Shown one piece after another: positions 341 through 23,321 of a stretch of 64,000 nt of DNA (position 1 is its first letter; each line of letters opens with the position of its first letter). Source of the DNA: a virus (Duplodnaviria; Heunggongvirae; Uroviricota; Caudoviricetes); IMG/VR virus record IMGVR_UViG_3300028048_000122, one strand, 5' to 3'. The position numbers and the translations under genes are program-made. The notes under the pieces were generated by a model. That model saw only the letters and a list, made by a program, of their open reading frames with translations, made no database searches and was not told the origin of the DNA.

Positions 341-345
341 AGAAG

Positions 346-866: not shown

Positions 867-878
867 GAGGTGAGATAA

Positions 879-1190: not shown

Positions 1191-1242
1191 GAGAAATGAG
1201 TACACATTGGGGCGCCAACTGGGGCTAAAGGAGGCACAGAAT

Positions 1243-1587
1243 ATGATTAATCAAACTGTAATAGTAGAACTTAATACTGAAGCTCTTTTGACAAAGAGGT
1301 TCAACATTTGTAAAGAAATTGTGTCAATTCTTGAGCAGAGCGAAGACGATTATGCAGCACTGATTAAAGCTCTGGAAGATAAAGGCATAACTGATGTCGT
1401 AGACTACCTCAATGAGCATGAAATTCCGTGGGCGTATATTGATGTGGATTACGAGCATGTTGAATTTCATGCGCAAAATGCCTTCAGTAAAACCCTGGAG
1501 TTTCTGATTCCGTTTAGCTTTGATGATGCAGAGTTAGATTTGGACATCGAAGAAAATATGGTTATGACGGAGGATGAAGATGACTGA
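1243..1587 (+). CDS. hypothetical protein
   Basis: ATG at 1243 preceded by AAAGGAGG; acidic C-terminus (EDEDD). Confidence 0.5.
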   Translation: MINQTVIVELNTEALLTKRFNICKEIVSILEQSEDDYAALIKALEDKGITDVVDYLNEHEIPWAYIDVDYEHVEFHAQNAFSKTLEFLIPFSFDDAELDLDIEENMVMTEDEDD

Positions 1588-1858
1588 AAAAGAATGCGAA
1601 ACGCGTATCTATGCTGCTATTGATGCGCTAAATCGGTTAGACCATAAACTGACATTCAGCTTTGAGCAAGATGAATGGAGCTGGCGATTAAGAGCAGAGA
1701 ATGCTCATGGTCACAGCTTTGGCGCTTTTGAGCCCATGGTCATATTTGACGACTATAAACGCAAGAAAGATGCATATGTAAGTTTTATGCGGCAGGTAGA
1801 AATTCTACTTGCCGGCACAACGCTTACAGCTAAAGGTGCGTATCACAACTTATATTAG
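1574..1858 (+). CDS. hypothetical protein
   Basis: ORF overlapping previous stop (ATGA); one of only four TAG-terminated genes in window. Confidence 0.45.
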   Translation: MKMTEKECETRIYAAIDALNRLDHKLTFSFEQDEWSWRLRAENAHGHSFGAFEPMVIFDDYKRKKDAYVSFMRQVEILLAGTTLTAKGAYHNLY

Positions 1859-1878
1859 GGCAGAGGTGATAAATAAAA

Positions 1879-2379
1879 ATGTTTACAGTAAAAAATTACT
1901 TCTTCGATGACGAAGACGATTTGTGGGCGGACATTCACTGTAATGGACGGCGCCAATGGTATGCAGTAATCGGCTGTGATAAAGATCATCCGTTATATAA
2001 AGAAGTGATGGAGCTTGATGAAGTCAATAAAACAGAAACTGCTCGCCATTTAATCGAAAAGTATTGCCGCGAACATGGTCACGAAGAGCGCATGGCAAAA
2101 CTACCGCATATCGAGGACGCCAGTATGCCCATGAAAATGGCTTGGGAAGGTGCAGATGAGTGGGACGGGCCATATACTAGTTCAGGCTACTATCTAAACG
2201 AAGAACAGTTTCAAGAAGATTACATGATGACTTCGGCCGAATTTAAGAAACAGCTGAAGGCTGATATCGACAAGTATGGCATCAGCAATGAGATAATTGA
2301 AGAACGCGACGGTGAAAGCCTGTACAGTGTGACCTGGTGGCTATGCGAATACTTCACCGAAGCAGTAGCTGATGGTTAA
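1879..2379 (+). CDS. hypothetical protein (166 aa)
   Basis: ORF with GAGGTGATAAATAAAAATG RBS. Confidence 0.5.
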   Translation: MFTVKNYFFDDEDDLWADIHCNGRRQWYAVIGCDKDHPLYKEVMELDEVNKTETARHLIEKYCREHGHEERMAKLPHIEDASMPMKMAWEGADEWDGPYTSSGYYLNEEQFQEDYMMTSAEFKKQLKADIDKYGISNEIIEERDGESLYSVTWWLCEYFTEAVADG

Positions 2380-2392
2380 GGAGGAAAAAAGT

Positions 2393-2650
2393 ATGGAAGA
2401 AACAAAATACCCGGAACAGATTGAAATTATCTGGACCGTAGATGATGTTCTCGATTTGCTGGTAGGCATTGATAAGAGCGGTACAGATGTACTTTATCGG
2501 GATTTAGGTATGACCAGACAGGAAGCCGCCCATGTGCTGCACGAAGTAAAAGAACACCATGATGCCAACGAAGGTGTAACCTGGAATACGCTGCATTACT
2601 GGGCGGAAGAGTTGTACGGCGACAAATATAAATATAATGAGGAGGCCTAA
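2393..2650 (+). CDS. hypothetical protein
   Basis: ATG 2393 after AAGGAGG; preferred over overlapping 2372 start. Confidence 0.5.
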   Translation: MEETKYPEQIEIIWTVDDVLDLLVGIDKSGTDVLYRDLGMTRQEAAHVLHEVKEHHDANEGVTWNTLHYWAEELYGDKYKYNEEA

Positions 2651-2653
2651 ATC

Positions 2654-2956
2654 ATGAAATACGATGTTGTTCTCTGCGAATGCACTGGCGTTAGAGGGCT
2701 AAATAAAGCCATCGTAGCTAAAATGGCTAATATGCTTAATGAAGACGAATTCTATCCCGTAATTTTTGATGCTGACTATGCAGAAGCATCGGCTATGGGT
2801 TTTATCTCTCGTACAACTGCCGAGAAACTGAAATTTGACTACTACGAATTAAAAGCGTATATCGGCGGCATCCTCGATGAAGACCATAAAAAGGTTTACG
2901 AGATTGACGGAGTAAAGATTTTCATCGGGAATAATGAAGAAGACGAGGATAAGTAA
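2654..2956 (+). CDS. hypothetical protein, paralog of 879..1190
   Basis: Shared motifs with ORF 879 (see there); acidic tail EEDEDK. Confidence 0.55.
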   Translation: MKYDVVLCECTGVRGLNKAIVAKMANMLNEDEFYPVIFDADYAEASAMGFISRTTAEKLKFDYYELKAYIGGILDEDHKKVYEIDGVKIFIGNNEEDEDK

Positions 2957-2957
2957 G

Positions 2958-3287
2958 ATGGCAGAGAACAAATGGATTGTCGATGGACATCATTACATGT
3001 GTCCAGTTTGTAAAAAAACGATGGCTATCGTGGTTAACGAGAGCGATGAGGGTTTTGAATTTTGTCCATTTTGCGGTAAAAGAATGTCAGGTCAGATGAC
3101 AGAAGATGAATTACTTCCATGCACTTGTGGCGGAGAAGCGTATATCAGAACTGCAGTAAGTCTGGATGATTTATATTCGGGTCATGTTATTGTTACGTGT
3201 GCATCATGTGGTGCATCGGTTTTTGGACAAACGATAGAACAGGCAAAAGCGCGATGGAACGGGGGAATTAAGAATGGCAACAGATAA
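2958..3287 (+). CDS. Zn-ribbon protein, Lar-family restriction-alleviation-like
   Basis: CPVC..CPFCG and CTCGG..CASCG..AKARWNGG; C-terminal CxxC plus ARWN resembles Lar family signature (from memory, not searched). Confidence 0.4.
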   Translation: MAENKWIVDGHHYMCPVCKKTMAIVVNESDEGFEFCPFCGKRMSGQMTEDELLPCTCGGEAYIRTAVSLDDLYSGHVIVTCASCGASVFGQTIEQAKARWNGGIKNGNR

Positions 3288-3549
3288 ACACATGTGGGCA
3301 GGCTGCGAATGTCTTGCTCACCTAGATAACATTAAATGCTGGCAAGAACGATGCGGTGACCCTATCGAAAATACGCTCATGGACGCCGTTAAACTTATTT
3401 ATTCGATGACTTATGGAGTTTCCTCTCTTCAGGTAGACGAAGATAAATTATGGCCCGTCGTGAAAGAAGTAATGCCTGCGCTCATCAAGGAGATGCGGGA
3501 TAATGATATCCCCGTGTGGAATCCGGAGGCTGATAACTATGAGTTCTAA
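3274..3549 (+). CDS. hypothetical protein
   Basis: ORF with GGGGGAATTAAG RBS. Confidence 0.45.
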   Translation: MATDKHMWAGCECLAHLDNIKCWQERCGDPIENTLMDAVKLIYSMTYGVSSLQVDEDKLWPVVKEVMPALIKEMRDNDIPVWNPEADNYEF

Positions 3550-3856
3550 TGTGCCTTTATTGATTGAATTACATGAAACAGTCTTTGTAAGAAAAGAAGA
3601 AGACGTCTGGAGCGGCGCATTCATGGCTGATATTTGCCACATCGAGCATATTGAATCGGCGCAGCCAGAATCTTATGTGGACGATAAACAAGCATGGATT
3701 AATAGGCGTAAAAAGCACGATATCGAAAAATGTTGGGGGGAATACTCTATACCGCATACAACTATCGTAACGATAGATGGTCGCAAAATCAAGGTTATTG
3801 AAACCTACGAAGAAATCAGAGAAAAAATAGCGAAGGCTGGAGTAGTAGTGCCATAA
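3539..3856 (+). CDS. hypothetical protein
   Basis: ATG 3539 after CCGGAGG; start chosen over 3503. Confidence 0.45.
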   Translation: MSSNVPLLIELHETVFVRKEEDVWSGAFMADICHIEHIESAQPESYVDDKQAWINRRKKHDIEKCWGEYSIPHTTIVTIDGRKIKVIETYEEIREKIAKAGVVVP

Positions 3857-3872
3857 AATAGGGGGTGTTTTT

Positions 3873-4562
3873 ATGAGCAAAGAATTGAAAGTAACCTTTT
3901 TTATAAAAGTCCCGGACGAAGAAGTCGAGTCCATTAAAGATGATTTAAAAGAACATGGTGATGAAATCATCGAGAAAGAGTTCCCGAAAATTGAACTATG
4001 CGATGTATTTCAGGCAGAAGACGTATATCATACAGAAAAGATGGTTTCTTATGGCGAAATCACGCTCGGCAAAAAGGTTCAGGTAACTGACCCTTGCTAT
4101 CACCTTGATGTTTGGTGTACAGAAACTATTGAGAATATGCTGCCGGGTGAATACGGCACATTTGCCTTTATTGCAGATAGAGGGATGATGGGCCGTCGTG
4201 TATCAAAATTAATGATTATTCATAAGAGCGTAGAATTAGGCGACCTGAAATTTAAAGTTGTTACCGGCGATATCGGCGTAGATAGCGGAAACTGCGGCTT
4301 TTTTGATTATAATAAGTATAAAGAAGCTAAGGAAGCTGATGCTAAGTTTGAGGCTGAACACAACAATATTGGTCCATTTACGAATAAATGGTGGTTAGTT
4401 TCAGACAACCTAAGAACACTTGGCGGCACACTGGATAACTGGGGCGTATTTTCTCATAGCGGTTATGGCGATGGCAGTTATGATCTGTATCTAGCTTACG
4501 ACGAAAGCGGAGAAAATGTAATCGCGGCTAAAATCGTTTACCTGTATGACGAGGAGGAATAA
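3873..4562 (+). CDS. hypothetical protein (229 aa) with SGYGDGSYD motif
   Basis: Clean ORF with GGGGG RBS; motif reminiscent of DUF4241-type proteins (unverified). Confidence 0.5.
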   Translation: MSKELKVTFFIKVPDEEVESIKDDLKEHGDEIIEKEFPKIELCDVFQAEDVYHTEKMVSYGEITLGKKVQVTDPCYHLDVWCTETIENMLPGEYGTFAFIADRGMMGRRVSKLMIIHKSVELGDLKFKVVTGDIGVDSGNCGFFDYNKYKEAKEADAKFEAEHNNIGPFTNKWWLVSDNLRTLGGTLDNWGVFSHSGYGDGSYDLYLAYDESGENVIAAKIVYLYDEEE

Positions 4563-4564
4563 CT

Positions 4565-4792
4565 ATGGAACAGAAATATAAATGGTTCAATTTCGGTTTG
4601 GAATATAAGATGTATGGCACAAAGTCTGTAAAAGTACCAGCAGATTTCACCAAGGAACAGGCTGAAGAATATGTACGTGAACATTGGGATGATATTGACC
4701 TACCCTGCAATGCCGGTTATCTGCCCAACAGCGCTGTCGCTGATTTTAACTGCAGCAATTTTGAAGAGGACCTTTTTAAGGAGGAGGAATAA
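4565..4792 (+). CDS. hypothetical protein
   Basis: ORF; acidic tail. Confidence 0.45.
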   Translation: MEQKYKWFNFGLEYKMYGTKSVKVPADFTKEQAEEYVREHWDDIDLPCNAGYLPNSAVADFNCSNFEEDLFKEEE

Positions 4793-4794
4793 TT

Positions 4795-5055
4795 ATGGCT
4801 ATTAAATGCCCTAATTGCGGCTATAAATCTATGATATTGGTGGCCCGTACCGATGCCCATTTCGCGGTAGACGAAGACGGTACGATGGGCAACGTCATTC
4901 TGGATGACGAAAGCATCGACTGTATCAACGAAGCCGTGGAATTGGCCAGCGCAGAAGATGGCGATATCGAATTCAAATGCCGTCATTGTCGTAGTAGTTT
5001 CGCGGCTAAGACTACCGACCATGAATATACCTACGAAATAGGCGAAGAGTTGTAA
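4795..5055 (+). CDS. small Zn-ribbon protein (CPNCG...CRHC)
   Basis: Paralog-family architecture with 663 and 7628. Confidence 0.5.
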   Translation: MAIKCPNCGYKSMILVARTDAHFAVDEDGTMGNVILDDESIDCINEAVELASAEDGDIEFKCRHCRSSFAAKTTDHEYTYEIGEEL

Positions 5056-5070
5056 AGGAGGCGAAATAAG

Positions 5071-5334
5071 ATGAATGGCTATTTATTAATCGAATATGGC
5101 CGGGATGAAAACGGCTATGATGTATACTTTCATCGTGAGGATGCTGAAAAAGATTTTATTAAGAAGGCAAAAGATTATGCTAGTGTCTTCGGTGACTCCG
5201 AGGTTCTGGCCAACGATAAAGATGATATGGAAGAACTTGCAGCAGGTGGCATTTATGCGCCTGACGGTGAAATAGTTCTTGAAATTGCTTCCTGTAATAT
5301 TATCGGCGAATACTTCTATCCGCAGGAGGGGTGA
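5071..5334 (+). CDS. hypothetical protein
   Basis: AAGGAGG RBS. Confidence 0.45.
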   Translation: MNGYLLIEYGRDENGYDVYFHREDAEKDFIKKAKDYASVFGDSEVLANDKDDMEELAAGGIYAPDGEIVLEIASCNIIGEYFYPQEG

Positions 5335-5336
5335 TC

Positions 5337-5636
5337 ATGGCTACAGTAAGAACCTGGATTATCAGCGCACACAACTCAGAAAATTGCGGCGCAAAAATAT
5401 TCCGTAAATTCGGCGATGAATATGATATCAAAAAACAGTTGGTCAAAATGGTAAAAGAGGCCAGTAAAGACTACGAAGATACTTTCGACAAAGACGCGAG
5501 CACCACTCGTGTAGCTGATTTCGAGGAAGATATAGACGATTATATCGTGGCTGTTGCGCAGTTCGAAAATTTCCATATCGACTTCACGGCTATTCCTTTG
5601 GATTACATTAACGACGTAGATGTAGAGGAGGATTGA
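5337..5636 (+). CDS. hypothetical protein
   Basis: CAGGAGGGG RBS then ATG 5337. Confidence 0.45.
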   Translation: MATVRTWIISAHNSENCGAKIFRKFGDEYDIKKQLVKMVKEASKDYEDTFDKDASTTRVADFEEDIDDYIVAVAQFENFHIDFTAIPLDYINDVDVEED

Positions 5637-6091
5637 ATAAAGTGAACCGATACTGGATGAACTATCTGATGCTTTCGGGCGGCAATGTATGCAATATCCC
5701 CTGTACGGACAGTCTGGACTGGAAAGAAGTAAGCAAGGCCGTTAACAAGATAAAGCAAAGAGAAGATATTGCAGCTGTCTTTGTTCAAGACGAAAGTCAT
5801 AAGCTGGTGTATCATGAAATCTTTGTTGATTTCTGCGGCCAGAAAACACCCTATAAGCCGTTTACTATGGCAGAGCCAGGCAGCGACAAAATCGTAGTTC
5901 AATGTACACAAACTTATGTTGAAGGTGATAACGAATATTGGACTGAGGGTCGCTACTATGAAGCCGAATATCTTAGCGACGAAAAATGGACATACGCTAT
6001 TGAAACAAACTTCGGCGGCGTAGGAAAAGTCGGCCCGGACTATATATTGGATGACTTCGATGAGTATTTTAGAATTATGGAGGAAGAATAA
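5633..6091 (+). CDS. hypothetical protein
   Basis: ORF; start uncertain (TTG 5633 / GTG 5642 / ATG 5657) after GAGGAGGA. Confidence 0.45.
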   Translation: MNKVNRYWMNYLMLSGGNVCNIPCTDSLDWKEVSKAVNKIKQREDIAAVFVQDESHKLVYHEIFVDFCGQKTPYKPFTMAEPGSDKIVVQCTQTYVEGDNEYWTEGRYYEAEYLSDEKWTYAIETNFGGVGKVGPDYILDDFDEYFRIMEEE

Positions 6092-6300
6092 TGTTTGCTG
6101 ACAATATTGTATGGGATATTGACCTGGAAGAGGGCGAAACCTATGAAGCCGCCCGCGCTGAACTGAAACTTCCTAAATGCGTAGAACTGCCTAAGCGGTT
6201 CTGGGATCCCGATGCGAATTCATCGGAGTACTACGAAGATATTTCGAACTGGCTCAGTGACGAATACGGATACTGCGTTAAAAGCTTTGCTCTATGCTGA
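6091..6300 (+). CDS. hypothetical protein
   Basis: ORF overlapping upstream stop (TAATG). Confidence 0.4.
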   Translation: MFADNIVWDIDLEEGETYEAARAELKLPKCVELPKRFWDPDANSSEYYEDISNWLSDEYGYCVKSFALC

Positions 6301-6315
6301 TAAAGGAATGATATA

Positions 6316-6843
6316 ATGCAAGATAGAATTCAATTAACGGCTACTCTGAAATACTATGCTAGAGATGTTCTATTTGAGAATATGGTAGAGCGCGCTGTGT
6401 CAGATATAGTAGGTCATCTTTTCAAGGACATCGTTGACAGTTTTAAAGTTGTCCGCAAAATGAGGGAAGCAGGCTATGAAGAGCTTGCCAACGCTTGGAA
6501 GAACGATAAAATTGATGATGAAGACGTCAGATGCTGCATCTATTTAAATCAGGCAACGCCAGAGTATATTAGAGCTGACAACGCTATCGTATTTTCTGTT
6601 ACATATATGCTGGATCTGAAAGAGCTGGAAGAATTGGTAGATATTCGCCGGCGCCAGCGGGAGCTTTCCTATGACGCAGAGCATTTTAAACAGCTATTAA
6701 AGGGAGTAATTCTCTATACTTCGGCATGCTGCAATACTCAGCAGCAACTGGAACAGTTAACAGCCATGGGATTCGAAGAACCGGATTTGCGCTACTTTGG
6801 CTTCAAAGATTATGACTTAGCCAAGTTTTATGAAACTGATTAA
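6316..6843 (+). CDS. hypothetical protein (175 aa)
   Basis: ORF with AAGGAATGATATAATG. Confidence 0.5.
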   Translation: MQDRIQLTATLKYYARDVLFENMVERAVSDIVGHLFKDIVDSFKVVRKMREAGYEELANAWKNDKIDDEDVRCCIYLNQATPEYIRADNAIVFSVTYMLDLKELEELVDIRRRQRELSYDAEHFKQLLKGVILYTSACCNTQQQLEQLTAMGFEEPDLRYFGFKDYDLAKFYETD

Positions 6844-6864
6844 TGGAAAGGTGATTGAACAAAA

Positions 6865-7182
6865 GTGAAAGCGTGTGATATTGAATGGAATGTATCAGAC
6901 CTTGAAATCTTCTGTAAGCTAGATGAAATGACAACAGAAGGCGCAGCAGAAATCTTGGGATTATCTCCACAGGCTTATGACAATATGACGGATGAAGAAC
7001 GCCATGATGCAGCATCAGAGTATTTTCACCGTCGCCATGAAAGCTGCCGCGCCGACTTCGTAGGCCTCCCCTCAGAAGTAGAACTCGATGATATCTTTAA
7101 CAGCTTGGATAAAGAAGATGCAATCGATTGGTTAGAACAGCAGTACGGCAACTACGTATTAAGTTGCAAGTTGGAGAGGTGA
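6865..7182 (+). CDS. hypothetical protein
   Basis: GTG start after GGAAAGGTGA. Confidence 0.45.
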   Translation: MKACDIEWNVSDLEIFCKLDEMTTEGAAEILGLSPQAYDNMTDEERHDAASEYFHRRHESCRADFVGLPSEVELDDIFNSLDKEDAIDWLEQQYGNYVLSCKLER

Positions 7183-7187
7183 AGACA

Positions 7188-7613
7188 ATGATCAGTATCG
7201 CTGATATGCGGAATATCGCTACCGCAGAAAAAGAAGCAGAGGAAAAGGCTAAAGAAGCCAAGTTCCAAAAAGATTTGGCTATGTACCGCGACAAGATTAG
7301 AAAAGTTCAGCCTAAAGTCGTAGAGTATATCCAGCAACAAATTGTTAATGCGATGAAAAATAACTGGTCCCAGGCAGGATTGCGTAGATATAGCATGGAA
7401 AAGATTTTCAAGGATATTCTTAGATATCCAAGCGAATCTGGCATGATTTATTATTTCTTGTGGAGTCCAGATTCTGAGGCTCATAGCGCTCTTGATACCG
7501 CCTTTAAAGAAATGGCACTGGAAATTCGCGACGAACTTTTTGAAGCCGGCATCAAAGAAATTCGTAAAGGCGGCCCGTTCGCAGGCGACCCTAGCGCCGT
7601 AGTTATTTTCTAA
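7188..7613 (+). CDS. hypothetical protein
   Basis: ATG 7188 after GGAGAGGTGAAG; earlier 7128 start overlaps previous gene. Confidence 0.5.
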   Translation: MISIADMRNIATAEKEAEEKAKEAKFQKDLAMYRDKIRKVQPKVVEYIQQQIVNAMKNNWSQAGLRRYSMEKIFKDILRYPSESGMIYYFLWSPDSEAHSALDTAFKEMALEIRDELFEAGIKEIRKGGPFAGDPSAVVIF

Positions 7614-8997: not shown

Positions 8998-9052
8998 TCC
9001 GGCGGTAAGCATAGAGAATACACCCTTAACAGCTCTTAAGAGAGGTGCATAT

Positions 9053-9235: not shown

Positions 9236-9340
9236 TCTTACGCAGTCATCATATGCGGCTTGTATATTTTATCTTAAAAAGCGGTAATAAAATATTAGAA
9301 CAGTCGCGGGTAAAAGTAACATCAAAAAAGACAAAAGGAA

Positions 9341-9583
9341 ATGATGCACGTGATGACTGCAAAAGTGGTAATCGATCTCGCGGCCTTAAAAGAGCTTCGG
9401 GACCAGAATGGTTATAGTATTTCAGACTTAGCAGCCAAGCTAGGTTATAAAACGCCAACAGGGTACTGGCTCATTGAGCAGGGGCAACGCAAGGTGTCTA
9501 TCGATACGCTGTACCGCCTGGCGGAGATCTATGATTGCACTATGGAAGACCTGATTACGGAAAATCCAGAAGCAGACGAATAA
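9341..9583 (+). CDS. XRE-family helix-turn-helix transcriptional regulator
   Basis: ELRDQNGYSISDLAAKLGYKTPTGYWLIEQGQRKVSIDTLYRLAEIY matches Cro/C1-type HTH pattern. Confidence 0.6.
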   Translation: MMHVMTAKVVIDLAALKELRDQNGYSISDLAAKLGYKTPTGYWLIEQGQRKVSIDTLYRLAEIYDCTMEDLITENPEADE

Positions 9584-9635: not shown

Positions 9636-9680
9636 TCGTTAAGAGAGTTGACATACTCTTAATCAATAGTGTAAACTATA
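9636..9680 (+). promoter_or_regulatory. TTGACA -35 box flanked by inverted repeat TTAAGAGAGT/ACTCTTAA (operator-promoter)
   Basis: Same TTAAGAG half-site family as 11456, 23322, 56278 and 27830. Confidence 0.45.
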
Positions 9681-9715
9681 GGAGAACCATTTTAAAGGTG
9701 GTTCTCCTTTAACTT
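9681..9715 (+). terminator. hairpin GGAGAACCA-9nt-TGGTTCTCC followed by T-rich tract (terminator/attenuator in leader of 9754 gene)
   Basis: Perfect 9-bp stem then TTTAACTTATATTTTATTCTT. Confidence 0.5.
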
Positions 9716-9753: not shown

Positions 9754-10701
9754 ATGAATAACATGCCTACGCAATTACCTACGGTCTCACCGCAGGTCTG
9801 GGACAATAAACGGGTAGTATCTTACGATGATATCGCTCGCCTGCATAAGGTTTCTAAGAACCGGGTAATAAAAGCTTTCCAGCGGCACAGCGAAGAGCTC
9901 TTAAAGGGAGAGGATTACTATGATCTTACCCGACAGGAGATGCTGGAATTCAAGGAAAACAATGCGCTGGACAATTTGTCCATCAGTAATCAGTCCACCG
10001 GTATGCGCGTATTTACGGAATCTGGTTACCTGGTACTGGCATGCACTTTTCGCGGCGCAGAAGCAGCATATGTCCGCCGCCAACTGGTGAACTCTTACTT
10101 TAAAGTGAAAGAGTTAAGAGCTACGGGAGTAAGCAGTCAGCTCCTTATCAGCCTTGAAAAAACCATTATCAATCAGAATAAGATGCTCGCGGCAATTAAC
10201 GAGTCTCTTGACAGACTGTTCAATAAGCCGGTGGAAGAAACAAAAACTATTGCCGCGCCGCAAGAAGAATCTATTCCCCAAAATCCTCCTGAGCTGCAGG
10301 ATGGGGAAGCTACTACGACATTCTTGGCTGAACGCTGCCGCTGGTATAGTACGCAAGGAAAGCCTCATACGGCGTTTACCGAACACGTTCTTAGAACGTT
10401 GGGTGTTCATACCAATAAATGCTATGAATATAACAACCCGTACAGCCGTTGCGTAATACAAGAAGTAGACGGTAAGATTGTTCCGTCACTTTACATTAAG
10501 CCGGCCGGCATCCAGAAGCTCTTAGACTGGTGCCGCAAGACGGATTATGCCCGTTCTATCAGAAAGGTGGAACGTTATCAGCGTGATTTCGGTATCCATA
10601 AAGCAGGAGACGTAAAATCCGTTTACTACTTATTGGAAACCGACGGGGTTAAAGGCGTTTGCCGCGCTGATAAGAAGAGGTATAATCTTAAGGACTTCTA
10701 A
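9754..10701 (+). CDS. ORF6N-domain / phage antirepressor-like protein
   Basis: N-terminus VVSYDDIARLHKVSKNRVIKAFQRHSEELLKGEDYYDLT resembles ORF6N domain; AGGAGGT RBS. Confidence 0.5.
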   Translation: MNNMPTQLPTVSPQVWDNKRVVSYDDIARLHKVSKNRVIKAFQRHSEELLKGEDYYDLTRQEMLEFKENNALDNLSISNQSTGMRVFTESGYLVLACTFRGAEAAYVRRQLVNSYFKVKELRATGVSSQLLISLEKTIINQNKMLAAINESLDRLFNKPVEETKTIAAPQEESIPQNPPELQDGEATTTFLAERCRWYSTQGKPHTAFTEHVLRTLGVHTNKCYEYNNPYSRCVIQEVDGKIVPSLYIKPAGIQKLLDWCRKTDYARSIRKVERYQRDFGIHKAGDVKSVYYLLETDGVKGVCRADKKRYNLKDF

Positions 10702-10704
10702 TCG

Positions 10705-10735
10705 TGGCGGCCTTCGGCCGCTACCATAAACCCCA
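10705..10735 (+). repeat. conserved hairpin-plus-tail element copy 2 (GTGGCGGCC-TTC-GGCCGCTACCATAAACCCC)
   Basis: Immediately downstream of a stop codon and upstream of the RBS of gene 10779. Confidence 0.5.
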
Positions 10736-10778
10736 TTTTGCCGTATCCACTATCTATTATGTTCACAGGAGGACGAGA

Positions 10779-11450
10779 ATGACTCTGGAAAATATCAGGC
10801 AAGAACTGAAACGAAGACACCTGAATCCCAAAATTGCTAAAGGTTTAACGGCGGCCATAATGATTGGTTCGCTCGTAGCCGGAGGAAGCGCTTATTATCA
10901 TAGCCATAAGACTATGGCTGAAGCGGCCGCTATGAGTGAAGAAGCTCAGCAGAAGATGGATGTATATCAGCAGTCCGTCGCCAAATATCAGGACGATATT
11001 GCCCGGCTCGAGGATGCTAATAAGCATCTCTTAGAGGAGAACCATGAGCTTAAGAACGAAGTGGAGGAACTCCGCCGGGAAGTAAACAGGGGATACTCAA
11101 TCGATGACGGTTTCGAAGTAGAAGTTACGGCCTACACGTTATCCGAAAGCGATTGTAATAAAGGCGCGAGTCACCCCGGTTACGGTTTAACAGCCAACGG
11201 CACCAATCTCGCGGGTCATACTCTGGAATCCGCCCGCGCTATAGCGGTGGATCCAAATGTTATCCCGCTCGGTTCTCAGGTACAGGTCGTATTCAAGGAC
11301 GCTTCCATGCAGCAGTATAACGGCGTTTATACCGCCTGCGATACGGGCGGCGCCATTAAAGGCAATATTATCGACCTGTTTGCCGGCGAAGGTGCCGATG
11401 ACCTGGCCATGCAGATTGGCCGCCGTCAGGCAACGGTAAAAATTCTTTAA
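10779..11450 (+). CDS. membrane-anchored 3D-domain (MltA/YocH-like) cell-wall hydrolase
   Basis: N-terminal TM helix and coiled coil; C-terminal AVDPNVIPLGS...YTACDTGGAIKGNIIDLF carries the three conserved Asp of the 3D domain. Confidence 0.6.
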   Translation: MTLENIRQELKRRHLNPKIAKGLTAAIMIGSLVAGGSAYYHSHKTMAEAAAMSEEAQQKMDVYQQSVAKYQDDIARLEDANKHLLEENHELKNEVEELRREVNRGYSIDDGFEVEVTAYTLSESDCNKGASHPGYGLTANGTNLAGHTLESARAIAVDPNVIPLGSQVQVVFKDASMQQYNGVYTACDTGGAIKGNIIDLFAGEGADDLAMQIGRRQATVKIL

Positions 11451-11455
11451 AAACG

Positions 11456-11498
11456 TTAAGAGTATATATTGACTTTAAGATACTCTTAATATATAATA
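11456..11498 (+). promoter_or_regulatory. consensus sigma70 promoter TTGACT-17-TATAAT inside 10-bp inverted repeat TTAAGAGTAT/ATACTCTTAA
   Basis: -35 at 11469-11474, -10 at 11492-11497; it faces the 1.1 kb ORF-free region and the tRNA array. Confidence 0.6.
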
Positions 11499-12636
11499 AA
11501 GTCATCAGGTAAAAAGACTCATGATAAGGGTAAAACATTGAAGGCTCCTTTCAGCGGGCGTGATGCAGACGCGTCCGCTATCATCTGGGCTCAAAGGTGA
11601 AAGTCTTAAGAGCTCGGCATTTTATCACACCTCCTCAATTATTTCTCTACATTTCTCTTTTTATCGCGATCATTTCACTGGTCGTATTCCTCCATCTGGT
11701 TCCCGGACAAGACACAAAACTGTCTAATTCATAATGACCTCCGACCAGCTTTCGGGCTGGTTGATACTTGAAAGAGCTTGTATCAAAACCTTGTTACCCC
11801 CTTGGCATAGATACTGGTGTACTCCTTTCTGATTTTGTTTGTGGTGATTGGCTCCTTTTCATTTTACCTCTCACTCTTTCAGGTATCAACGAACCCGAAA
11901 CATGGGTTCCATGGTGATTTGCCTTTCTTTCTAAGGCCAGCTTCTAGGCTGGCTGATATTCACGATAACTATAATAATCATGGATATCAGCGACCCTAGA
12001 GGTCGAAAAAATTTAACAAACAGAAAACTATGGCAAAGCATACCTCGGTTATAAAACGCAATATCATGCGTCCGAGAATGGCCCCGTAATTGATACTAAC
12101 AAACTGCAGTAGATATGCCTGCAGTGAGTATGTCCTCTCTTAGTGATAAAAGCGGGCGGCACGTAAAGTGTAAACGCGCGTATCTTGAGGTCATGTGCAT
12201 GCAATGCCGAGCATTAAAGCAGGAACTGACAGGGTTCCATAAGTGCGTGAATGCAATTGGTGCATTCCTCCGCCGCCAGTTAAGGCTCAAGGCCTGATAA
12301 ACCTTGAGATACACGAGGTATTTATCGAGATGAAACTTTGCTGTGATGTCCTCAAAAAGGACTATAACTGTCAGTCGCCGTACAAGTAGCCCAAGGCAAT
12401 GATACAGATCAGTATGCAGCTTTATAGCAATCTATAATTCTGAATGACGGGTGAAAGTTGAGGGTCACAATCCCTTTGGAGCTAGAAAGAGGCAAGAAGC
12501 GCGTGTCGACGGGCGCGTTGCTCAGACTTGTCTTCTCCGTGGCTGAATAAATGCAGAGCATCAAGTTGTGTATAGGGAAACCTGATGTTTTGCCGTAGTT
12601 TTGTGTTTGTTAATAACACAGGTGAACTAACTATTT

Positions 12637-12729
12637 GGAGTTGTGGCTGAGAGGCTGAAAGCGGCGCCCCGCTAAGGCGTTATACCCCGCTATAGGGTAT
12701 CGTTGGTTCGAATCCAACCAACTCCGCCA
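12637..12729 (+). tRNA. tRNA-Ser (anticodon GCU), type II, CCA encoded
   Basis: Acceptor GGAGTTG/CAACTCC, 3-bp D stem, anticodon stem GCGCC/GGCGT, loop CCGCTAA (C at position 33 is unusual), long variable arm, T arm GTTGGTTCGAATCCAAC. Confidence 0.7.
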
Positions 12730-12733
12730 TGAT

Positions 12734-12809
12734 GTACCTTTGGCGTAATTGGTAACACGGCAGTCTCCAAAACTGTAAGATGTTGGTTCGAGTCCAGCAG
12801 GGTATGCCA
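12734..12809 (+). tRNA. tRNA-Trp (anticodon CCA), CCA encoded
   Basis: Folded by hand; all positions fit standard 76-nt numbering (U8, A14, G18G19, U33, CCA, A37, T54T55C56). Confidence 0.85.
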
Positions 12810-12813
12810 TTAT

Positions 12814-12888
12814 GTTGATGTAGCTCAATGGGGATAGAGCACCGAAACTGTAACTTCGGAGACTCAGGTTCAAGTCCTGACATCGGCT
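12814..12888 (+). tRNA. atypical tRNA, Tyr-like anticodon loop aCTGTAAc (GUA) with 8-nt loop, type I body
   Basis: Acceptor GTTGATG/CATCGGC (2 G-U pairs), D arm GCTC-AATGGGGATA-GAGC, stem CCGAA/TTCGG encloses 8 nt, T arm TCAGG-TTCAAGT-CCTGA. Confidence 0.5.
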
Positions 12889-12997
12889 TAGCTAATTTAG
12901 TCTGACTGGTCTGATCAGCCGGTTAGGCGAAACACTACTGTAGTGGCCCTAAAGGGCGTGCTCGAAATCCCGAAGTACGTAAAATATGTCGGGATGT

Positions 12998-13072
12998 GGT
13001 TCCGTAGTATAGTGGTCAGTATATCGGCTTGTCACGCCGAGGACACGAGTTCAATTCTCGTCGGAACCGCCA
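12998..13072 (+). tRNA. tRNA-Asp (anticodon GUC), CCA encoded
   Basis: Acceptor GGTTCCG/CGGAACC; loop TTGTCAC; T loop TTCAATT. Confidence 0.85.
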
Positions 13073-13199
13073 TCATGTCCCAGTATCAGGCTAACGTCTG
13101 ATCAGAGGCATACATTTTTCAGGGCGCCCACCGCAGCGCGGCACCACCGTTAATTACACGCCTAATGCCAAATGCGGTTAACTTGAATAATTCCCTGTA

Positions 13200-13475
13200 A
13201 AGGGATTAGATATAGTTGTTGACTCAGACGGTCGGCAACAAAACGGTCACTATCCGGCCGCTCCGTTAACTAAAATCCGTCAGCTACCGGAGGGAAATAC
13301 GATAGGTCCTGAGTAAGACCGAACTGCTCGCTTCTAATGTCCTTCTCCCAGGCTAACGTCTGGTAGGGGATACAAAAACAATCCGGTCACCGTCCGGCCA
13401 CTTATATCGGCTCACAACGGCCCTGATATAAGGGAAACAAGACGGATCCTGGGTACGATATAACTGCCCACGCCC
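13200..13475. repeat. degenerate tandem duplication (~140 bp units) in non-coding DNA
   Basis: Units near 13255-13330 and 13393-13470 share CCGGCC...GGGAAA-ACA..GG-CCTG-GTA-GA...AACTGC...CTAATG; the motif CAGGCTAACGTCTG also occurs twice (13087, 13339). Confidence 0.4.
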
Positions 13476-13479
13476 TAAT

Positions 13480-13555
13480 GGTGCTCATCGTCTAATGGTT
13501 AGGACAGCAGTTTGTGGCACTGCTAATCCCGGTTCGACTCCGGGTGATCACCCCA
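13480..13555 (+). tRNA. tRNA-His (anticodon GUG) with encoded G-1, CCA encoded
   Basis: Extra 5' G pairing with discriminator C; anticodon stem GCAGT/ACTGC, loop TTGTGGC; T arm CCCGG-TTCGACT-CCGGG. Confidence 0.8.
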
Positions 13556-13585
13556 TTTAAAAATATAGGAGAGGAGTTGCTCCTT

Positions 13586-13828
13586 TTGTATAAGAAATAT
13601 AAGGAATATTTTCTGGCCGGCGGCGCGGCAATGAATATCATGAACGCCCTATGGTGGATCGTAGATCCTGAAAGATTCACTGAGATGCTCGAATGCTCCA
13701 CGGTATATGGAGTACTTTTGCTATTCGAGGCCTTCATCATCTTACCAGCCGTGCTATTCGTAGCTGATAAGGCATTCGATAAGTTACACGAGAAGCTCAA
13801 GAAATACCTGGTGATTAACGACAAATGA
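13586..13828 (+). CDS. small hydrophobic membrane protein
   Basis: TTG start after AGGAGAGGAG; two predicted TM segments; the track ORF start overlaps tRNA-His, so it was trimmed. Confidence 0.35.
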   Translation: MYKKYKEYFLAGGAAMNIMNALWWIVDPERFTEMLECSTVYGVLLLFEAFIILPAVLFVADKAFDKLHEKLKKYLVINDK

Positions 13829-14043
13829 AGAAAAAACTGGTTATCACCCAAGATACGATAGATAAGTATATAGCATACGTCATAGCGATGTGCGGCATAA
13901 TCGTGGCCACCTTAATGGTTTACGCTACGGCTAAAGCTGAGTATAACGTAGCTATTGAGTTGACTATGCTGACATTCGTTATCGGGCCGGCACTCGGCTT
14001 TCTGATAGAAAATATAGTTAATTTCATCAAAGAAAGGTTTTGA
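13825..14043 (+). CDS. small membrane protein (72 aa)
   Basis: ORF overlapping previous stop; two hydrophobic helices. Confidence 0.4.
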   Translation: MKKKLVITQDTIDKYIAYVIAMCGIIVATLMVYATAKAEYNVAIELTMLTFVIGPALGFLIENIVNFIKERF

Positions 14044-14201
14044 TTTTCTATGGTAAAAACTTATTCTAACAATACGAAAGATTATAAAGTAGGCAAAAGT
14101 CTCTTTTTCCCCAAGGCTAAATGTTGCGCTACAGTAAATAAGCCAGTTCAGGAAGGCCGCTTAATGGGCCGTTATGTTGCAACTACAGGCAACAAACACT
14201 A

Positions 14202-14426
14202 ATGTTTATCGATAAATACGGCTATTACGCCGTGATTTATAGTCTAGCATATTTTGTTAACATCACTATTTCTGTTCATAACGGCAACAATCCGCCACCC
14301 GAATGGTTTTGGCTTATAAGTTGTTTTTTATTCGGCCCAATTTGCTTAATGATTTTTTATAGAATAGCAGACTGGGTTGAAAAGAAATATCATATTTATA
14401 AGAAGCGAAAGAACAGTGAACTTTAA
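14202..14426 (+). CDS. small membrane protein (74 aa)
   Basis: ORF with two hydrophobic segments, basic C-terminus. Confidence 0.4.
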   Translation: MFIDKYGYYAVIYSLAYFVNITISVHNGNNPPPEWFWLISCFLFGPICLMIFYRIADWVEKKYHIYKKRKNSEL

Positions 14427-14585
14427 CAAGATATACATATTTGGCGCAACATATATGATTATCTGTTGCGTTGCAGCAATAATTATTTGTTCAAAAGCGC
14501 CAATCTAAACCCCCCTCCATGTGACCAACAAGGAAAAGTTGTTAAAACCTGCCATTGTAAAAATTCTATTCTAGGAGAGAAGAAC

Positions 14586-14855
14586 ATGACAGTATACATT
14601 GTTGCTGAGCATACTTTAGTAGATGATTGCGATCAGGACATTCTGGGTGTATTCGATAACGAAGAAGCTGCCAAAGCATGCCTTAAAGCCTATGTGAAAT
14701 CACGTTATTGGGGCAATGAAGACGAGATAGAAGATGACGGTACTTATTATCGCGATAGTGAATGGATGGTTGAAATCCATGAATGCGATATCAAAAAAGA
14801 ATTCAAACCTGAAGATTATTACTGGTATGAAGAACCCGAAGAAGACGAAGATTGA
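14586..14855 (+). CDS. hypothetical acidic protein
   Basis: ATG 14586 after TAGGAGAGAAG; acidic tail like early genes. Confidence 0.45.
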   Translation: MTVYIVAEHTLVDDCDQDILGVFDNEEAAKACLKAYVKSRYWGNEDEIEDDGTYYRDSEWMVEIHECDIKKEFKPEDYYWYEEPEEDED

Positions 14856-15243
14856 TTAATCTTCTCGCGTGACCTGACTGTTAGTTGCCAAGAGAACTAC
14901 ACAGCGAATAAAGATATACAGTGAAATATCAAGTAACTGATTGCAGTGAATGTCAAGTAACTGTATAGCCTCGGAGAGCCCCGAAAGAAACTTGGCCTGT
15001 GGCATCTCCAAAGGACACCGTAAACGCTAAAATGAATTACGGTATCATCCGGCCCTAGAGGACAAGCCGGATAAACGGAAATCGCCCCGGTTAAGTGCGA
15101 GGCTAAAATGACTTCATGTCTTCGGGCATGGTCACTGGACAAGGAAAAGTCTTTAAAACCTCTCACGGCTTTGGATGAGCGATAGATAAAAATCCAGACC
15201 ATCCTAAGGCGGTAGGATGTAAAATAAAGCCGCCCTCGATAAT

Positions 15244-15324
15244 GAGGCAGTAGCTCAAATGGCAGAGCAGACGGGAAAGCAAATGGGGCTTTCTTATGAT
15301 GGTGGTTCGACTCCTCCCTGCCTC
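15244..15324 (+). ncRNA. tRNA-like element with non-canonical anticodon arm
   Basis: Perfect acceptor GAGGCAG/CTGCCTC, normal D arm GCTC-AAATGGCA-GAGC, T arm GGTGG-TTCGACT-CCTCC. The anticodon arm is replaced by an 8-bp hairpin GGGAAAGC-AAATGGG-GCTTTCTT. Confidence 0.3.
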
Positions 15325-15429
15325 CCCTATATAATGCTCATAGTCTGGGGAACACCGGCCGGTAGACAGGTTCGATTCCTGTAATGAGCGCATGTTTCCC
15401 GATATCAAAGAATCGGGCACCAATGGCTA

Positions 15430-16235
15430 CGGGTGCGTATAAGTAGATAGCCAGCTTGAGTCACCGTGGACACTGGATGCCCCTATGTGTAGGAGCATGC
15501 CAGCTTTGCCCGAAGAAGGGGCGCGATCCACGACACAAAAGCTTTCCTTGCGGTGATAGGTTAACCGAAATAAGGGTCTCCATTAACCCTGGCATAGCGC
15601 CAAAAGAGATGACCATTATCGAAGCTTTCACTACCGTCTAACTGGGGAAGTAAGAACTGGATGGCCACGGTTTTTAGCACCCAGCAATAGACGATGTGAC
15701 AGCATTCCTTTCGGTGAAAGGTAAACCGAAAACCAACATTAAACCTGGTCCGCCCCGATAACGCCGTGACGTACAAACGGTAGCTCGGTAAAGTGGTAGC
15801 AAGGTTGCGCCAAGCGTACCTGGATTACTTTTATCTGGATAAACTAAAGTACACGGTTTATCAACTTAAGGATAATAACAGGCACGAAGGTGATTTAGCC
15901 TCCAAGGCGAAAAACGGCGTAGGTTAAGGGCACTACGTAATAAGCCGCCCGAGTCGGAAAAGCCGACATTAAACCTGCATAAGATATCTGCTTGTTATGG
16001 GGATAGAGCAGAGAAACCGGTGGCTACGGCATTAATCCGGTAAACGTCAAAGACATGTAGGGCTCCCCTGCGGGGTGAGTAAGGTACTTGACGGCCGCAA
16101 AAAGACTTTTAGACATCTCAAAGCGAGAACTCGGTCATGAAGACTAACCCATCTTCAAATTCTCCAGATGCTGCTTATCTTTTCGGGCATCAAAAATATG
16201 GTCTTGGCGAATATAATGTAATAGAAAGGTCAATA
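15430..16235 (+). ncRNA. candidate large structured ncRNA (ORF-free ~0.8 kb inside tRNA island)
   Basis: No ORF above 60 aa on the + strand; internal recurring motif CCGAAA...ACATTAAACCTG occurs three times; many local helices; context inside a phage tRNA array. Confidence 0.25.
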
Positions 16236-16239
16236 GTTT

Positions 16240-16536
16240 ATGACGGTTTTAGATGCTCCGTCTACTGTCGAAGTAGATAGAAAAATGCTTTATTGCCTGG
16301 CAAGACGCTTTCAGTCGCTTGAGGCAACAGCAGGCAAGGAAAATTCCCCATTTATGGGATGTGCATGGTGCAAGCTAACTAATGGGGACGAAAAAAAGAA
16401 CTGCATTCATTTCACGAAAGGTGTGGAGTTTTATAAATATTTTAGGGAACTCACTGGAGTGAATCTGTCTATTATTGCGCCAGAAGGCAACAAAATGGAT
16501 AAAGAAGTTGAAATCGGCGAAAAAACCTGGTATTAA
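16240..16536 (+). CDS. hypothetical protein (98 aa)
   Basis: ORF with AGAAAGG RBS. Confidence 0.45.
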   Translation: MTVLDAPSTVEVDRKMLYCLARRFQSLEATAGKENSPFMGCAWCKLTNGDEKKNCIHFTKGVEFYKYFRELTGVNLSIIAPEGNKMDKEVEIGEKTWY

Positions 16537-17119
16537 AGTCTATTATATCATATTCGCCAAGACTAGGCAGGACGACTAGTTATCGTCAATTGCCGTGCCG
16601 CCTTACGAAGCGAGTAGCGCCATGATTCTCTACGGGGGCTTGGCGCGGGCGACAAACATTCAGACCTTGTAAGCGAAGGCAGAAGGGACGCCTTCAATCA
16701 AATCGGTGAAGCTTACTCCTAGTAATGGCCATTTGGCAAAGCTCGGTGGAAAATCCGACAAGGTGCTGCTAATGCTTCGGGCACTAATTAATCACATAAC
16801 TGCTTGTTATAAGCGCGTGTATGACTACCGTGGAGGGGCTGCGCGTGATGGGAGAGGCTCTGCCCGATAGTGGCCAAAAGGTTCAACTACCGTGAGTCCC
16901 ACGGAGAAACAATAAGCCCTGTACCTTATGAAAACAGGCAAAGTGCTGCTTTATGAGAGTTGTTCGGGCACTAAAAACCTGCACTGGCAACTTCATCATC
17001 TTTCAATGCCAGTAAAAGCGTTTGATAACGTTCATCAGCCATTTCGGCTGATTAAGATAAATCTACTAAAAGATAGGTTTGTTTTAATGAACCGATATGG
17101 AAAGAAAGGAAGGGCGGCA

Positions 17120-17680
17120 ATGCCACAAAAAGTTAAATTGTATCTTCTTGGCGGTACTGCTGTCATGGATTTAGTATATTCAGCAACATCTCCTGTTATT
17201 CAAGTGTACTTTATAAGCTTAATAAGTTCCAGCGTTTTAGCGGCGGCCAACATTCTGACGACTGCTTTAGCTGCAGGAGTTAATGCATCTATCCAGTCTG
17301 ATAGACTTAAGGATTTCTACAGACGTCATTTTCTCGGGATAATCGTAATAGATATTGTCTGTTTTGCACTTATTAATTTCGAAGGAATTTCTATTCCTGA
17401 AGTAAGATTTCTCGGTCTAGCGATATTAAATGCGGTATCTTCTACGTTATGGTTTACTGTAGTAACTGATGCTATTAACCATCAGATTGAAGGCGACAAG
17501 TTAACGAAATGGAATAGCTTATCTAAAACAGTTAATCTTACGGCGGCACTTATCGGCAGTGTAATCGCGATAGTATTCACTACGCATATCGGTGTAGAGT
17601 TCTGCATCGCGGCACAGTGCCTAGCGAACTTATTTATGGGCGCAACCGACTGGCTGGCATATAAAAGAATACGATACTAA
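17120..17680 (+). CDS. polytopic membrane protein
   Basis: ATG 17120 after AAAGGAAGG; at least 5 hydrophobic helices. Confidence 0.5.
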   Translation: MPQKVKLYLLGGTAVMDLVYSATSPVIQVYFISLISSSVLAAANILTTALAAGVNASIQSDRLKDFYRRHFLGIIVIDIVCFALINFEGISIPEVRFLGLAILNAVSSTLWFTVVTDAINHQIEGDKLTKWNSLSKTVNLTAALIGSVIAIVFTTHIGVEFCIAAQCLANLFMGATDWLAYKRIRY

Positions 17681-17694
17681 AAGAGGTGCGATTT

Positions 17695-17862
17695 GTGTTT
17701 TTATTTATTGTGGATGCAATGTTCATTTTGACAGAACTTTTTTGTGCGATGAGTATACCGCCTCTTCTGCTTAACGGATATTTTATGTATAGCCTTGTTC
17801 TTGCTTTAACTTTATACGTGGTTTTTCAACTAGATAGGGAATTTCATGTGCGGTATTGGTAA
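17695..17862 (+). CDS. small hydrophobic peptide (55 aa)
   Basis: GTG start after AAAGAGGTG; not in ORF track (below cutoff). Confidence 0.25.
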   Translation: MFLFIVDAMFILTELFCAMSIPPLLLNGYFMYSLVLALTLYVVFQLDREFHVRYW

Positions 17863-18061
17863 GAAAAACAAGATAGTTAGTCTCCAAGACTATAAAGAAG
17901 AGAACAGCCCGCATGAAGTAGCCGAAGTAATCTGCCTGCATTGTATGAATCGTTGGATATCTGTACATGAACAAGGAGAATGGCTTGCTAATTGGGAATG
18001 TCCTAAATGCGGTAAAGCGGGCGGCATTATATATACGGGGCAGCCATTGCCGGAGGAATAA
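17846..18061 (+). CDS. small Zn-ribbon protein (CLHC...CPKCGK)
   Basis: Two CxxC pairs. Confidence 0.45.
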   Translation: MCGIGKKNKIVSLQDYKEENSPHEVAEVICLHCMNRWISVHEQGEWLANWECPKCGKAGGIIYTGQPLPEE

Positions 18062-18243
18062 TGGAATTCAAATTAAACTCAAAGCTCGAAGAATGGGTAA
18101 AAGAACATAATAAAATCTGTCATTCAAATGCTTCAGCCGGCGAACATTATCAGTTTGAGTTCCTGCCGACAGGCATTATGGAAATCCAGACCGTAAAATG
18201 CCTTTGCTGCGGAGAAGAAAGGACAGAATACGATGGTTGGTGA
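18061..18243 (+). CDS. hypothetical small protein
   Basis: ORF overlapping prior stop (TAATG). Confidence 0.4.
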   Translation: MEFKLNSKLEEWVKEHNKICHSNASAGEHYQFEFLPTGIMEIQTVKCLCCGEERTEYDGW

Positions 18244-20297: not shown

Positions 20298-20303
20298 TAT
20301 CAT

Positions 20304-20380: not shown

Positions 20381-20385
20381 TTATT

Positions 20386-20982: not shown

Positions 20983-20994
20983 TATCATGGGAAA

Positions 20995-23319: not shown

Positions 23320-23321
23320 TG

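Follow-up and report, generated by a model that had tools for sequence, protein, structure and literature searches.

What do the short repeats around several promoters of an uncultured jumbo phage do, and which protein, if any, reads them? The DNA in question (the window) is a 64,000-nt stretch of IMG/VR virus record IMGVR_UViG_3300028048_000122 (Caudoviricetes). It is part of a very large (jumbo) phage genome and carries nearly all of its genes on the + strand. The 7-bp sequence TTAAGAG and its variants recur at the -35 elements of four strong promoters, which we call P1 to P4. A sequence-only reading had explained these repeats as a regulon under one dimeric DNA-binding protein, the obvious candidate being the XRE-family regulator encoded next to P1. 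We find the box to be a genuine cis element of host-type promoters, conserved and at the same time lineage-specific. Most likely, and with moderate confidence on our part, the boxes are the predicted operators of a phage-encoded or lineage-specific DNA-binding repressor; the XRE protein is probably not that repressor.

The boxed promoters

The coordinates and sequences first given for the boxed promoters proved essentially right, with small corrections. All four promoters lie on the + strand. P1 (9639-9677) consists of TTAAGAG (9639-9645), the -35 element TTGACA (9648-9653), an inverted CTCTTAA (9656-9662) and, after an 18-nt spacer, the -10 element TAAACT (9672-9677). It precedes genes for an ORF6N-domain protein (9754-10701) and a 3D-domain protein (10704-11450). 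In P2 the arms TTAAGAGTAT (11456-11465) and ATACTCTTAA (11480-11489) surround the -35 element TTGACT (11469-11474), and a 17-nt spacer leads to the -10 element TATAAT (11492-11497). Three boxes can be distinguished here: A, TTAAGAG (11456-11462); B, a direct TTAAGAT (11475-11481) right after the -35 element; and C, an inverted CTCTTAA (11483-11489). P2 is the best promoter match within 1-20 kb, agreeing with the consensus at 11 of 12 positions.

P3 is organised differently. The sequence-only reading had counted five TTAAGAC copies at 23322-23395; there are three exact copies (23297, 23323 and 23342), together with GTCTTA at 23287 and 23360, TTAAGAA at 23370 and TTAAGAG at 23380, the whole cluster spanning 23287-23386. 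The copy at 23323 abuts the -35 element TTGACT (23330-23335) and that at 23342 abuts the -10 element TTAATA (23353-23358), while the copy at 23380 merges into a Shine-Dalgarno sequence. The two copies flanking the -35 element (23323 and 23342) have the same orientation and lie 19 bp from each other, so that the proposed inverted half-sites around TTGAC(A/T) are present at P1, P2 and P4 and absent at P3. The genes 3' of P3 are gmk, clpP, a clpX-like gene, ssb, gyrB and gyrA. P4 (56275-56322) contains a perfect inverted repeat around the -35 element TTGACA (56293-56298), as had been described, but its arms are 15 bp rather than 12 bp long (56275-56289 and 56298-56312) and their core is CTAAGAG/CTCTTAG, not TTAAGAG. 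Its -10 element is the extended TGgTAACCT (56314-56322), an intrinsic terminator (56237-56269) precedes it, and gam, a primase gene, an HU-like gene and nrdD follow.

Judged by consensus match, all four are promoters of the sigma-A/sigma-70 type: TTGACA-18-TAAACT (P1), TTGACT-17-TATAAT (P2), TTGACT-17-TTAATA (P3) and TTGACA-18-TAACCT with a TG extension (P4). Each has one box just 5' of the -35 element and a further one or two in the spacer. The sites have 2-6 boxes each, in inverted pairs at P1, P2 and P4 and in direct pairs at P2 and P3; the centre-to-centre distance of the inverted half-sites is 16-17 bp in P1, 18-19 bp in P4 and 27-29 bp in P2.

The sequence-only reading had depended on the motif being more frequent than chance, and it is: both strands of the window together hold 41 copies of TTAAGAG, compared to 10.3 ± 3.1 in dinucleotide shuffles, and non-coding DNA holds 12 copies where 1.8 are expected. 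The association with promoters is tighter still. Two or more TAAGA(G/C) boxes occur within -20 to +24 of the -35 element in four of the four intergenic TTGAC(A/T) promoters with a good -10 element, and the 23 other TTGAC(A/T) sites are all without boxes. The probability of two or more boxes is 0.0072 per site, or ~3 x 10^-9 for all four, in a test that was picked after inspection of the data. The bare palindromes are of unequal significance: the P4 repeat was matched in none of 2000 shuffles and that of P2 in 21 of 2000, whereas the 7-bp arms of P1 are not significant (171 of 2000).

Conservation and change of the box in related phages

No DNA relative of the window was found among GenBank phages, where GyrA gave distant matches only, and single-protein searches of IMG/VR with the ORF6N and Gam proteins returned no relative. 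A scan of IMG/VR for the pattern TTAAGAG..TTGAC..CTCTTAA gave 51 single matches, about the number expected by chance and none of them related to the window; a literature search on the bare string TTAAGAG yielded unrelated papers only. Relatives were found in metagenome assemblies. These contain one identical contig (L004), two at ~90% identity (L005 and L092), and a wider family with contigs of up to 260 kb, from which orthologous promoter loci were retrieved via homologues of XRE, Gam and guanylate kinase.

The layout of the boxed promoters is conserved in these relatives. At P1, close relatives have substitutions directly beside CTCTTAA and none within it; L066, whose XRE protein is 84% identical, reads ATTAAGAG-tc-TTGACG-g-CTCTTAAT at P1 and TTAAGAGtggctaTTGACAttaagaCACTCTTAGcaTATAAT at its P2 orthologue (position 2392). 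The P3 orthologues retain two direct boxes 19 bp apart. Gaps between inverted boxes differ from promoter to promoter, but among the orthologues of each they vary by only 1-2 bp (9-10 bp in P1, 11-12 bp in P4 and 20-22 bp in P2).

The sequence of the box is what changes. The P2 orthologue of L059 (XRE 87% identical), ATATGAGAGAagggtaTTGACAatgaaagCTCTCTCATaTATAAT at position 12411, keeps the layout and has all three boxes of the ATGAGAG type. At P4 the boxes are TTAAGAG/CTCTTAG in L083, ATGAGAG/CTCTCAT in L081 and ATAAGAG/CTCTCAT in L082. At P3 they are TTAAGGc/cTAAGAC in L084 and L087 and TTTAGAG/TTTAGAT in L086; L092 has cTAAGAG where the window has TTAAGAC, and the G and C forms are therefore variants of one box. 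The phages thus fall into box lineages, with TTAAGAG in the window, L066 and L083, ATGAGAG or ATAAGAG in L059, L081 and L082, and TTTAGAG in L086. The change is concerted: it affects both arms, the direct inner box of P2, and both P2 and P4. Counted over 12 box pairs, 91.7% of cells are paired, compared to 78.6% in shuffles, and 15 cells have changed on both sides, compared to 5.8; none of 500 shuffles reached either value. Box positions 1 and 3 are the ones that covary.

Of the proposed regulon, then, the core stands: several sigma-A-type promoters share a cis element that is kept in orthologues and changes in concert between lineages. A fixed palindromic operator does not, given that the spacing varies and some repeats are direct.

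A predicted operator for a sequence-specific repressor

In the reading we favour, the boxes have the predicted consensus WTRAGAG, represented in the window genome by TTAAGAG, TAAGAG or TAAGAC, and would act as separate units, inverted or direct and at promoter-specific distances, without a single rigid palindrome. A protein bound to them would cover the -35 element and the spacer and so exclude RNA polymerase, and the outcome would be coordinated repression or timed shut-off of the P1-P4 units. Repression by occlusion is the most likely mode because the boxes cover the -35 element and spacer of near-consensus promoters; promoters this close to consensus should not need an activator. We considered a MerR-type promoter and rejected it, as the spacers are 17-18 nt rather than the over-long 19-20 nt and the repeats bracket the -35 element, not the centre of the spacer.

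Three observations favour a protein that reads sequence over a hairpin: different promoters of one genome carry the same 7-mer; direct copies, which cannot pair with each other (P3 and the inner box of P2), share the lineage-specific sequence; and the arms of P1 and P2 are short and AT-rich with loops of 10-14 nt, while the long arms of P4 are not conserved.

Several points weigh against this reading. For a simple dimer, inverted half-sites spaced by 16-19 and 27-29 bp would be unusual. A Pfam scan of ~70 window proteins revealed no clear regulator besides XRE, only a sub-threshold Bro-N domain and zinc ribbons, and in the XRE, HU-like and ORF6N proteins we could detect no residue pattern that follows the box variant. 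The comparative sample is small, comprising about three box lineages, and the alignment used to count covariation was compiled manually from sites that had been selected for being repeats; it formalises the concerted change and does not prove it. L059 and L081 are different contigs that we assume to represent a single lineage. In that lineage ~22 nt, ATATGAGAGAA(A)GGGTATTGAC, are common to P2 and P4, so that some of the concerted change may be due to copying from one promoter to the other. Finally, the box is not recognisable in the distant lineages L061, L063, L074, L075 and L088-L091. As for the proteins examined, the DNA-binding arm of the HU-like protein is conserved across the box lineages, and the ORF6N protein, divergent along its whole length, gives no information.

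Is the neighbouring XRE protein the reader?

The 80-aa XRE-family protein encoded at 9341-9583 on the + strand (HTH_3, PF01381, E = 2.8e-12) was the candidate named at the outset: a Cro-like helix-turn-helix (HTH) protein that would bind the inverted repeats as a dimer and repress the regulon. No other canonical sequence-specific HTH protein was found in the window, its gene lies immediately upstream of P1, and SinR, a member of the same family, reads a 7-bp consensus in varied number and orientation (PMC3163267). The comparison with relatives does not bear the proposal out. The HTH stretch LGYKTPTGYWLIEQGQRKVS, which includes the recognition helix, does not vary among homologues of 100% to 54% overall identity, while the boxes do. 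Over residues 24-68, the proteins of the window and L066 (TTAAGAG) differ from those of L059 and P0015 (ATGAGAG; P0015 is inferred to sit on the 253,826-bp contig of L082) only by K33M, at the C-terminal end of helix 2. This sole difference in the HTH region does match the box type, in two lineage groups only. The end of helix 2 is, however, not a usual base-contacting position in HTH proteins of the 434/lambda type.

Other features also argue against XRE. The conserved promoter of its own gene, with a TGTAAA-like -35 element and a GTAATA -10 element, has no boxes in any lineage; the same XRE protein is also encoded by distant phages, where its neighbours are different and boxes are absent nearby; the half-site spacing is not fixed across sites; and XRE has no oligomerisation domain like that of SinR. 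With nothing in its support beyond adjacency, XRE is a poor candidate on the sequence comparisons, and we think it unlikely that this protein is the reader. The XRE promoter itself, at 9240-9300 in the window, is conserved upstream of XRE in L059-L091 and is usually preceded by a GGCGGCC...GGCCGCC terminator hairpin.

Boxes inside genes

The sequence-only reading had missed the strong enrichment of the box within genes. TTAAGAG/CTCTTAA occurs 29 times in coding DNA, compared to 5.1 ± 2.4 after codon shuffling, which rules out codon usage as the cause. The copies are divided 14 to 15 between the strands and are present in all four stop-free frame contexts, and TTAAGAG is the top strand-symmetric 7-mer in the window's genes. 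They cluster in the gene blocks 3' of P1, P3 and P4: the region 21.6-36.5 kb has 13 where 1.1 are expected, and the region 1-9 kb has one where 0.6 are expected. Relatives of the TTAAGAG lineage show the same enrichment in the P3 unit (9 vs 1.4 and 12 vs 1.5). ATGAGAG, by comparison, is not enriched inside the genes of L059, L081 and L082. Since the intragenic enrichment does not follow the lineage box, the intragenic copies can be assigned to the system of the promoter boxes only tentatively.

A second word, TTAACAGC/GCTGTTAA, is likewise enriched on both strands in genes relative to codon shuffles, in the window, in L059 and L081 taken together, and in L083 and L085 taken together. A second promoter class marked by GGTAATA was considered and discarded, the nine copies found not being significantly more than the 4.6 expected.

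A broader hypothesis would make the box a genome-wide, orientation-independent DNA mark. A phage protein reading it would gate the promoters used by the host polymerase, including that of the ROOL RNA (see below), and would also bind the many intragenic sites in the replication-gene blocks downstream. Such a dual role would resemble that of DnaA boxes or omega heptads (looping, roadblock, silencing, or origin/partition functions), with the specificity having switched from TTAAGAG to ATGAGAG between sister lineages. We regard this as speculative, and about as doubtful as the case for XRE.

Explanations without a dedicated regulator

The boxes might also have no regulator of their own. They could be shared because a promoter cassette was copied by duplication or gene conversion, or they could tune promoter strength as auxiliary contacts made by RNA polymerase or a modified sigma factor. 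The ~22 nt of left half shared by P2 and P4 in the L059/L081 lineage fit copying, the upstream boxes are placed where UP-like or activator contacts occur, and the intragenic enrichment may reflect a broader bias at the DNA level. Recent copying nevertheless fails to explain the shared box in the window, because the sequence between box and -35 element differs among P1, P2 and P4, yet is kept between orthologues (GAGTTTTC(C)TTGACA in the window and L083). Polymerase contacts leave the inverted copies in the spacer unexplained, and the position of the boxes relative to the -35 element varies by promoter. We judge this explanation to be slightly less likely than either of the two preceding ones.

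Alternatively, the repeats could act through structure, either as cruciforms that hide the -35 element under supercoiling or as RNA hairpins in read-through transcripts. Both arms do change together between lineages, the length of the loop varies, as hairpins tolerate, and the phage has its own GyrA and GyrB. As single-stranded DNA, P4 gives a good fold (-14.3 kcal/mol, z = -8.0), and P2 and its orthologues have z values of -3.3 to -3.9. Structure alone, however, leaves unexplained why the same 7-mer is shared across promoters and occurs in direct copies (P3 and box B of P2). P1 and P2, with AT-rich arms of 7-10 bp, loops of 10-14 nt and energies of -3.6 and -5.7 kcal/mol, respectively (z = -1.7 for P1), would make poor cruciforms, and the long arms of P4 are not conserved, the orthologues in L083 and L081 having only 7-9 bp. 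There is no U-tract after the repeats. Being AT-rich and followed by -10 elements rather than T-runs, the box repeats are not intrinsic terminators. A purely structural role therefore strikes us as improbable, somewhat more so than the absence of a dedicated regulator.

Chance, in the form of AT-rich promoter regions that happen to contain a common word, could appeal to the abundance of TTAAGAG in the window, the insignificant P1 palindrome and the merging of two of the cited copies (9036 and 23380) into ribosome-binding sites, but it is effectively refuted by the comparative data, the positions being conserved and the boxes changing in concert in orthologues, as well as by the exclusive association of the boxes with all four promoters.

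Comparison with known systems

By analogy, the closest functional parallels are regulons of 7-bp boxes in mixed orientation, such as those of SinR and omega. SinR of Bacillus subtilis, an XRE/HTH_3 repressor, binds 7-bp GTTCTYT sites that vary in number and are inverted, tandem or single at several promoters of one regulon (PMC3163267). The mixture of inverted and direct 7-bp boxes at P1-P4 is similar. The differences are that SinR has a C-terminal tetramerisation domain, whereas the XRE protein of the window is an 80-aa HTH only, that the box sequences are unrelated, and that the boxes of the phage lie directly on the -35 element and spacer. Omega, the ribbon-helix-helix (RHH) ParB protein of plasmid pSM19035, is a small global repressor that binds, one unit at a time, non-palindromic WATCACW heptads in direct or inverted orientation overlapping promoters (PMC9499535). 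The phage boxes are likewise 7-bp units in either orientation that overlap promoters; they differ in being 1-22 bp apart and 2-6 per site, compared to contiguous arrays of 7-10 omega heptads. The ~70 window proteins scanned contain no RHH domain. What the window has in common with heptamer-box regulons is a 7-bp consensus present in several copies, in both orientations and at several promoters.

Two phage systems are less close. The p4 protein of phi29, a phage of Gram-positive bacteria, acts at inverted repeats at or near the -35 elements of the sigma-A promoters A2b, A2c and A3 to switch early transcription off. Its sites are set at a fixed distance and occupied by a DNA-bending dimer; the box separations in the window are promoter-specific. 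A small XRE-family gene beside an inverted-repeat promoter recalls Cro/CI, but the boxed promoters are spread over ~47 kb and serve replication and RNA genes. Neither fixed spacing, nor co-variation with the recognition helix, nor autoregulation, as would be expected of Cro/CI-type operators, was found.

Further box sites and neighbouring features

A candidate fifth site lies inside gyrA (32942-33003, + strand) and had gone unremarked. TTGACA-17-GATAAT is followed there by a 12-bp perfect inverted repeat, ATATTTTAAGAG-N11-CTCTTAAAATAT, which forms a convergent box pair at 32969-33003. The site falls within a 50-nt run identical to L092, whose overall identity is 90%; this run ranks 23rd of 1042, and membership of the site is suggestive only. 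A single box 5' of ssb, on the + strand (box 27832-27838, within TTAAGAGAGTT at 27832-27842), had been cited as a recurrence of the motif. It is present and its position is conserved, reading TTTAGAG in L084 and L085, but it has no -35 element nearby; a conserved hairpin follows it. The palindrome before gene 9053, cited at 9030, is likewise present (CTCTTAAGAG, 9033-9042). It consists of everted boxes that run into the GAGAGG ribosome-binding site of that gene, and its membership in the box system is doubtful.

Just downstream of P1, starting 3 nt past its -10 element, is a hairpin with a T-rich tail (GGAGAACCA/TGGTTCTCC, 9681-9707, + strand), a layout repeated in L066 and L059. It is probably the terminator of the XRE transcript, stopping read-through from XRE. 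A transcript initiated at P1 would have its 5' end within the left arm of the hairpin and should thus escape termination.

About 520 nt 3' of P2, just before a block of tRNA genes, lies a full-length ROOL RNA (Rfam RF03087, 215 bits; 12020-12603, + strand). This order of promoter, ROOL and tRNAs recurs in L059 (ROOL at 13249), and in L075 a strong promoter is followed by tRNAs and ROOL (8142). The tRNA array of the window (12637-21647, + strand) comprises at least 10 tRNA genes. They include a suppressor-type tRNA with the anticodon CTA (20304-20380), a possible hint at amber-codon reassignment elsewhere in the genome, and a tRNA to which ARAGORN assigns an odd anticodon (12814-12888); Rfam reports tRNA-like matches at 15244 and 19993. 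Near-identical hairpins, GACCAGCYTTCGGGCTGGTT, at 11747-11768 and 22915-22937 bracket the block of non-coding RNAs and tRNAs. The same block contains other structured RNAs in relatives, namely tmRNA in L059 (16385-16786) and L071 (6814-7291), a RAGATH-26 RNA in L074 (15418-15500) and a HEARO RNA in L078 (3995-4209).

The gene content of the window includes GyrB, GyrA, RecA, ClpP, a ClpX-like ATPase, two SSB-like proteins, UvrD, an SNF2 helicase, NAD ligase, Gam, a DnaG-type primase, an HU-like protein and NrdD. The nrdD gene is present as two open reading frames (ORFs; 59965-61338 and 62393-63262). Between them lies an ORF (61424-62257) with weak, sub-threshold HNH and NUMOD3 matches, which resembles an intron or intein with a homing endonuclease; nrdD is intact in L083 (740 aa) and more fragmented in L081 and L082. 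In L084 a LAGLIDADG ORF interrupts the clpX-like gene (3969-6633), and gyrB is in pieces with an inserted ORF in L084 (8150-11466) and L085 (5361-8677). Insertions of mobile endonucleases appear to be common in this phage family. L082 also carries, at 100-7600, a type IV CRISPR-Cas module (Csf1, Csf3, Cas6 and a DinG-like helicase) followed by an apparent repeat array.

Two further features complete the picture. The longest run identical to L092 is a 132-nt segment (30759-30890) that covers the intergenic DNA before the second SSB-like gene. It is also kept in the more distant L085, where TTAAGAG takes the place of TTATGAG in the window, and it may have a conserved function in regulation or as an RNA. 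An imperfect 20-nt inverted repeat (TTTCTCGGTAATATAAATGT/ACATTTATATTGCTCAGAAA, 55550-55596) upstream of the amidase gene (55586-56221) is unrelated to the TTAAGAG boxes.

Implications

Next to nothing is known of how genes are regulated in uncultured jumbo phages whose hosts are Firmicutes-like bacteria of the gut and rumen. Here, four or five concrete, testable promoters with a common control element make up one putative regulon, which would link the replication modules, an operon for cell-wall enzymes and the ROOL/tRNA array. The placement of P2 suggests that the strongest host-type promoter, subject to phage-specific control, produces the ROOL RNA, an RNA of unknown function. It is tempting to assume that the XRE gene next door encodes the regulator; the present findings correct that assumption. 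Sister lineages with different boxes at the same promoters provide a natural experiment in which the reader could be found by co-variation.

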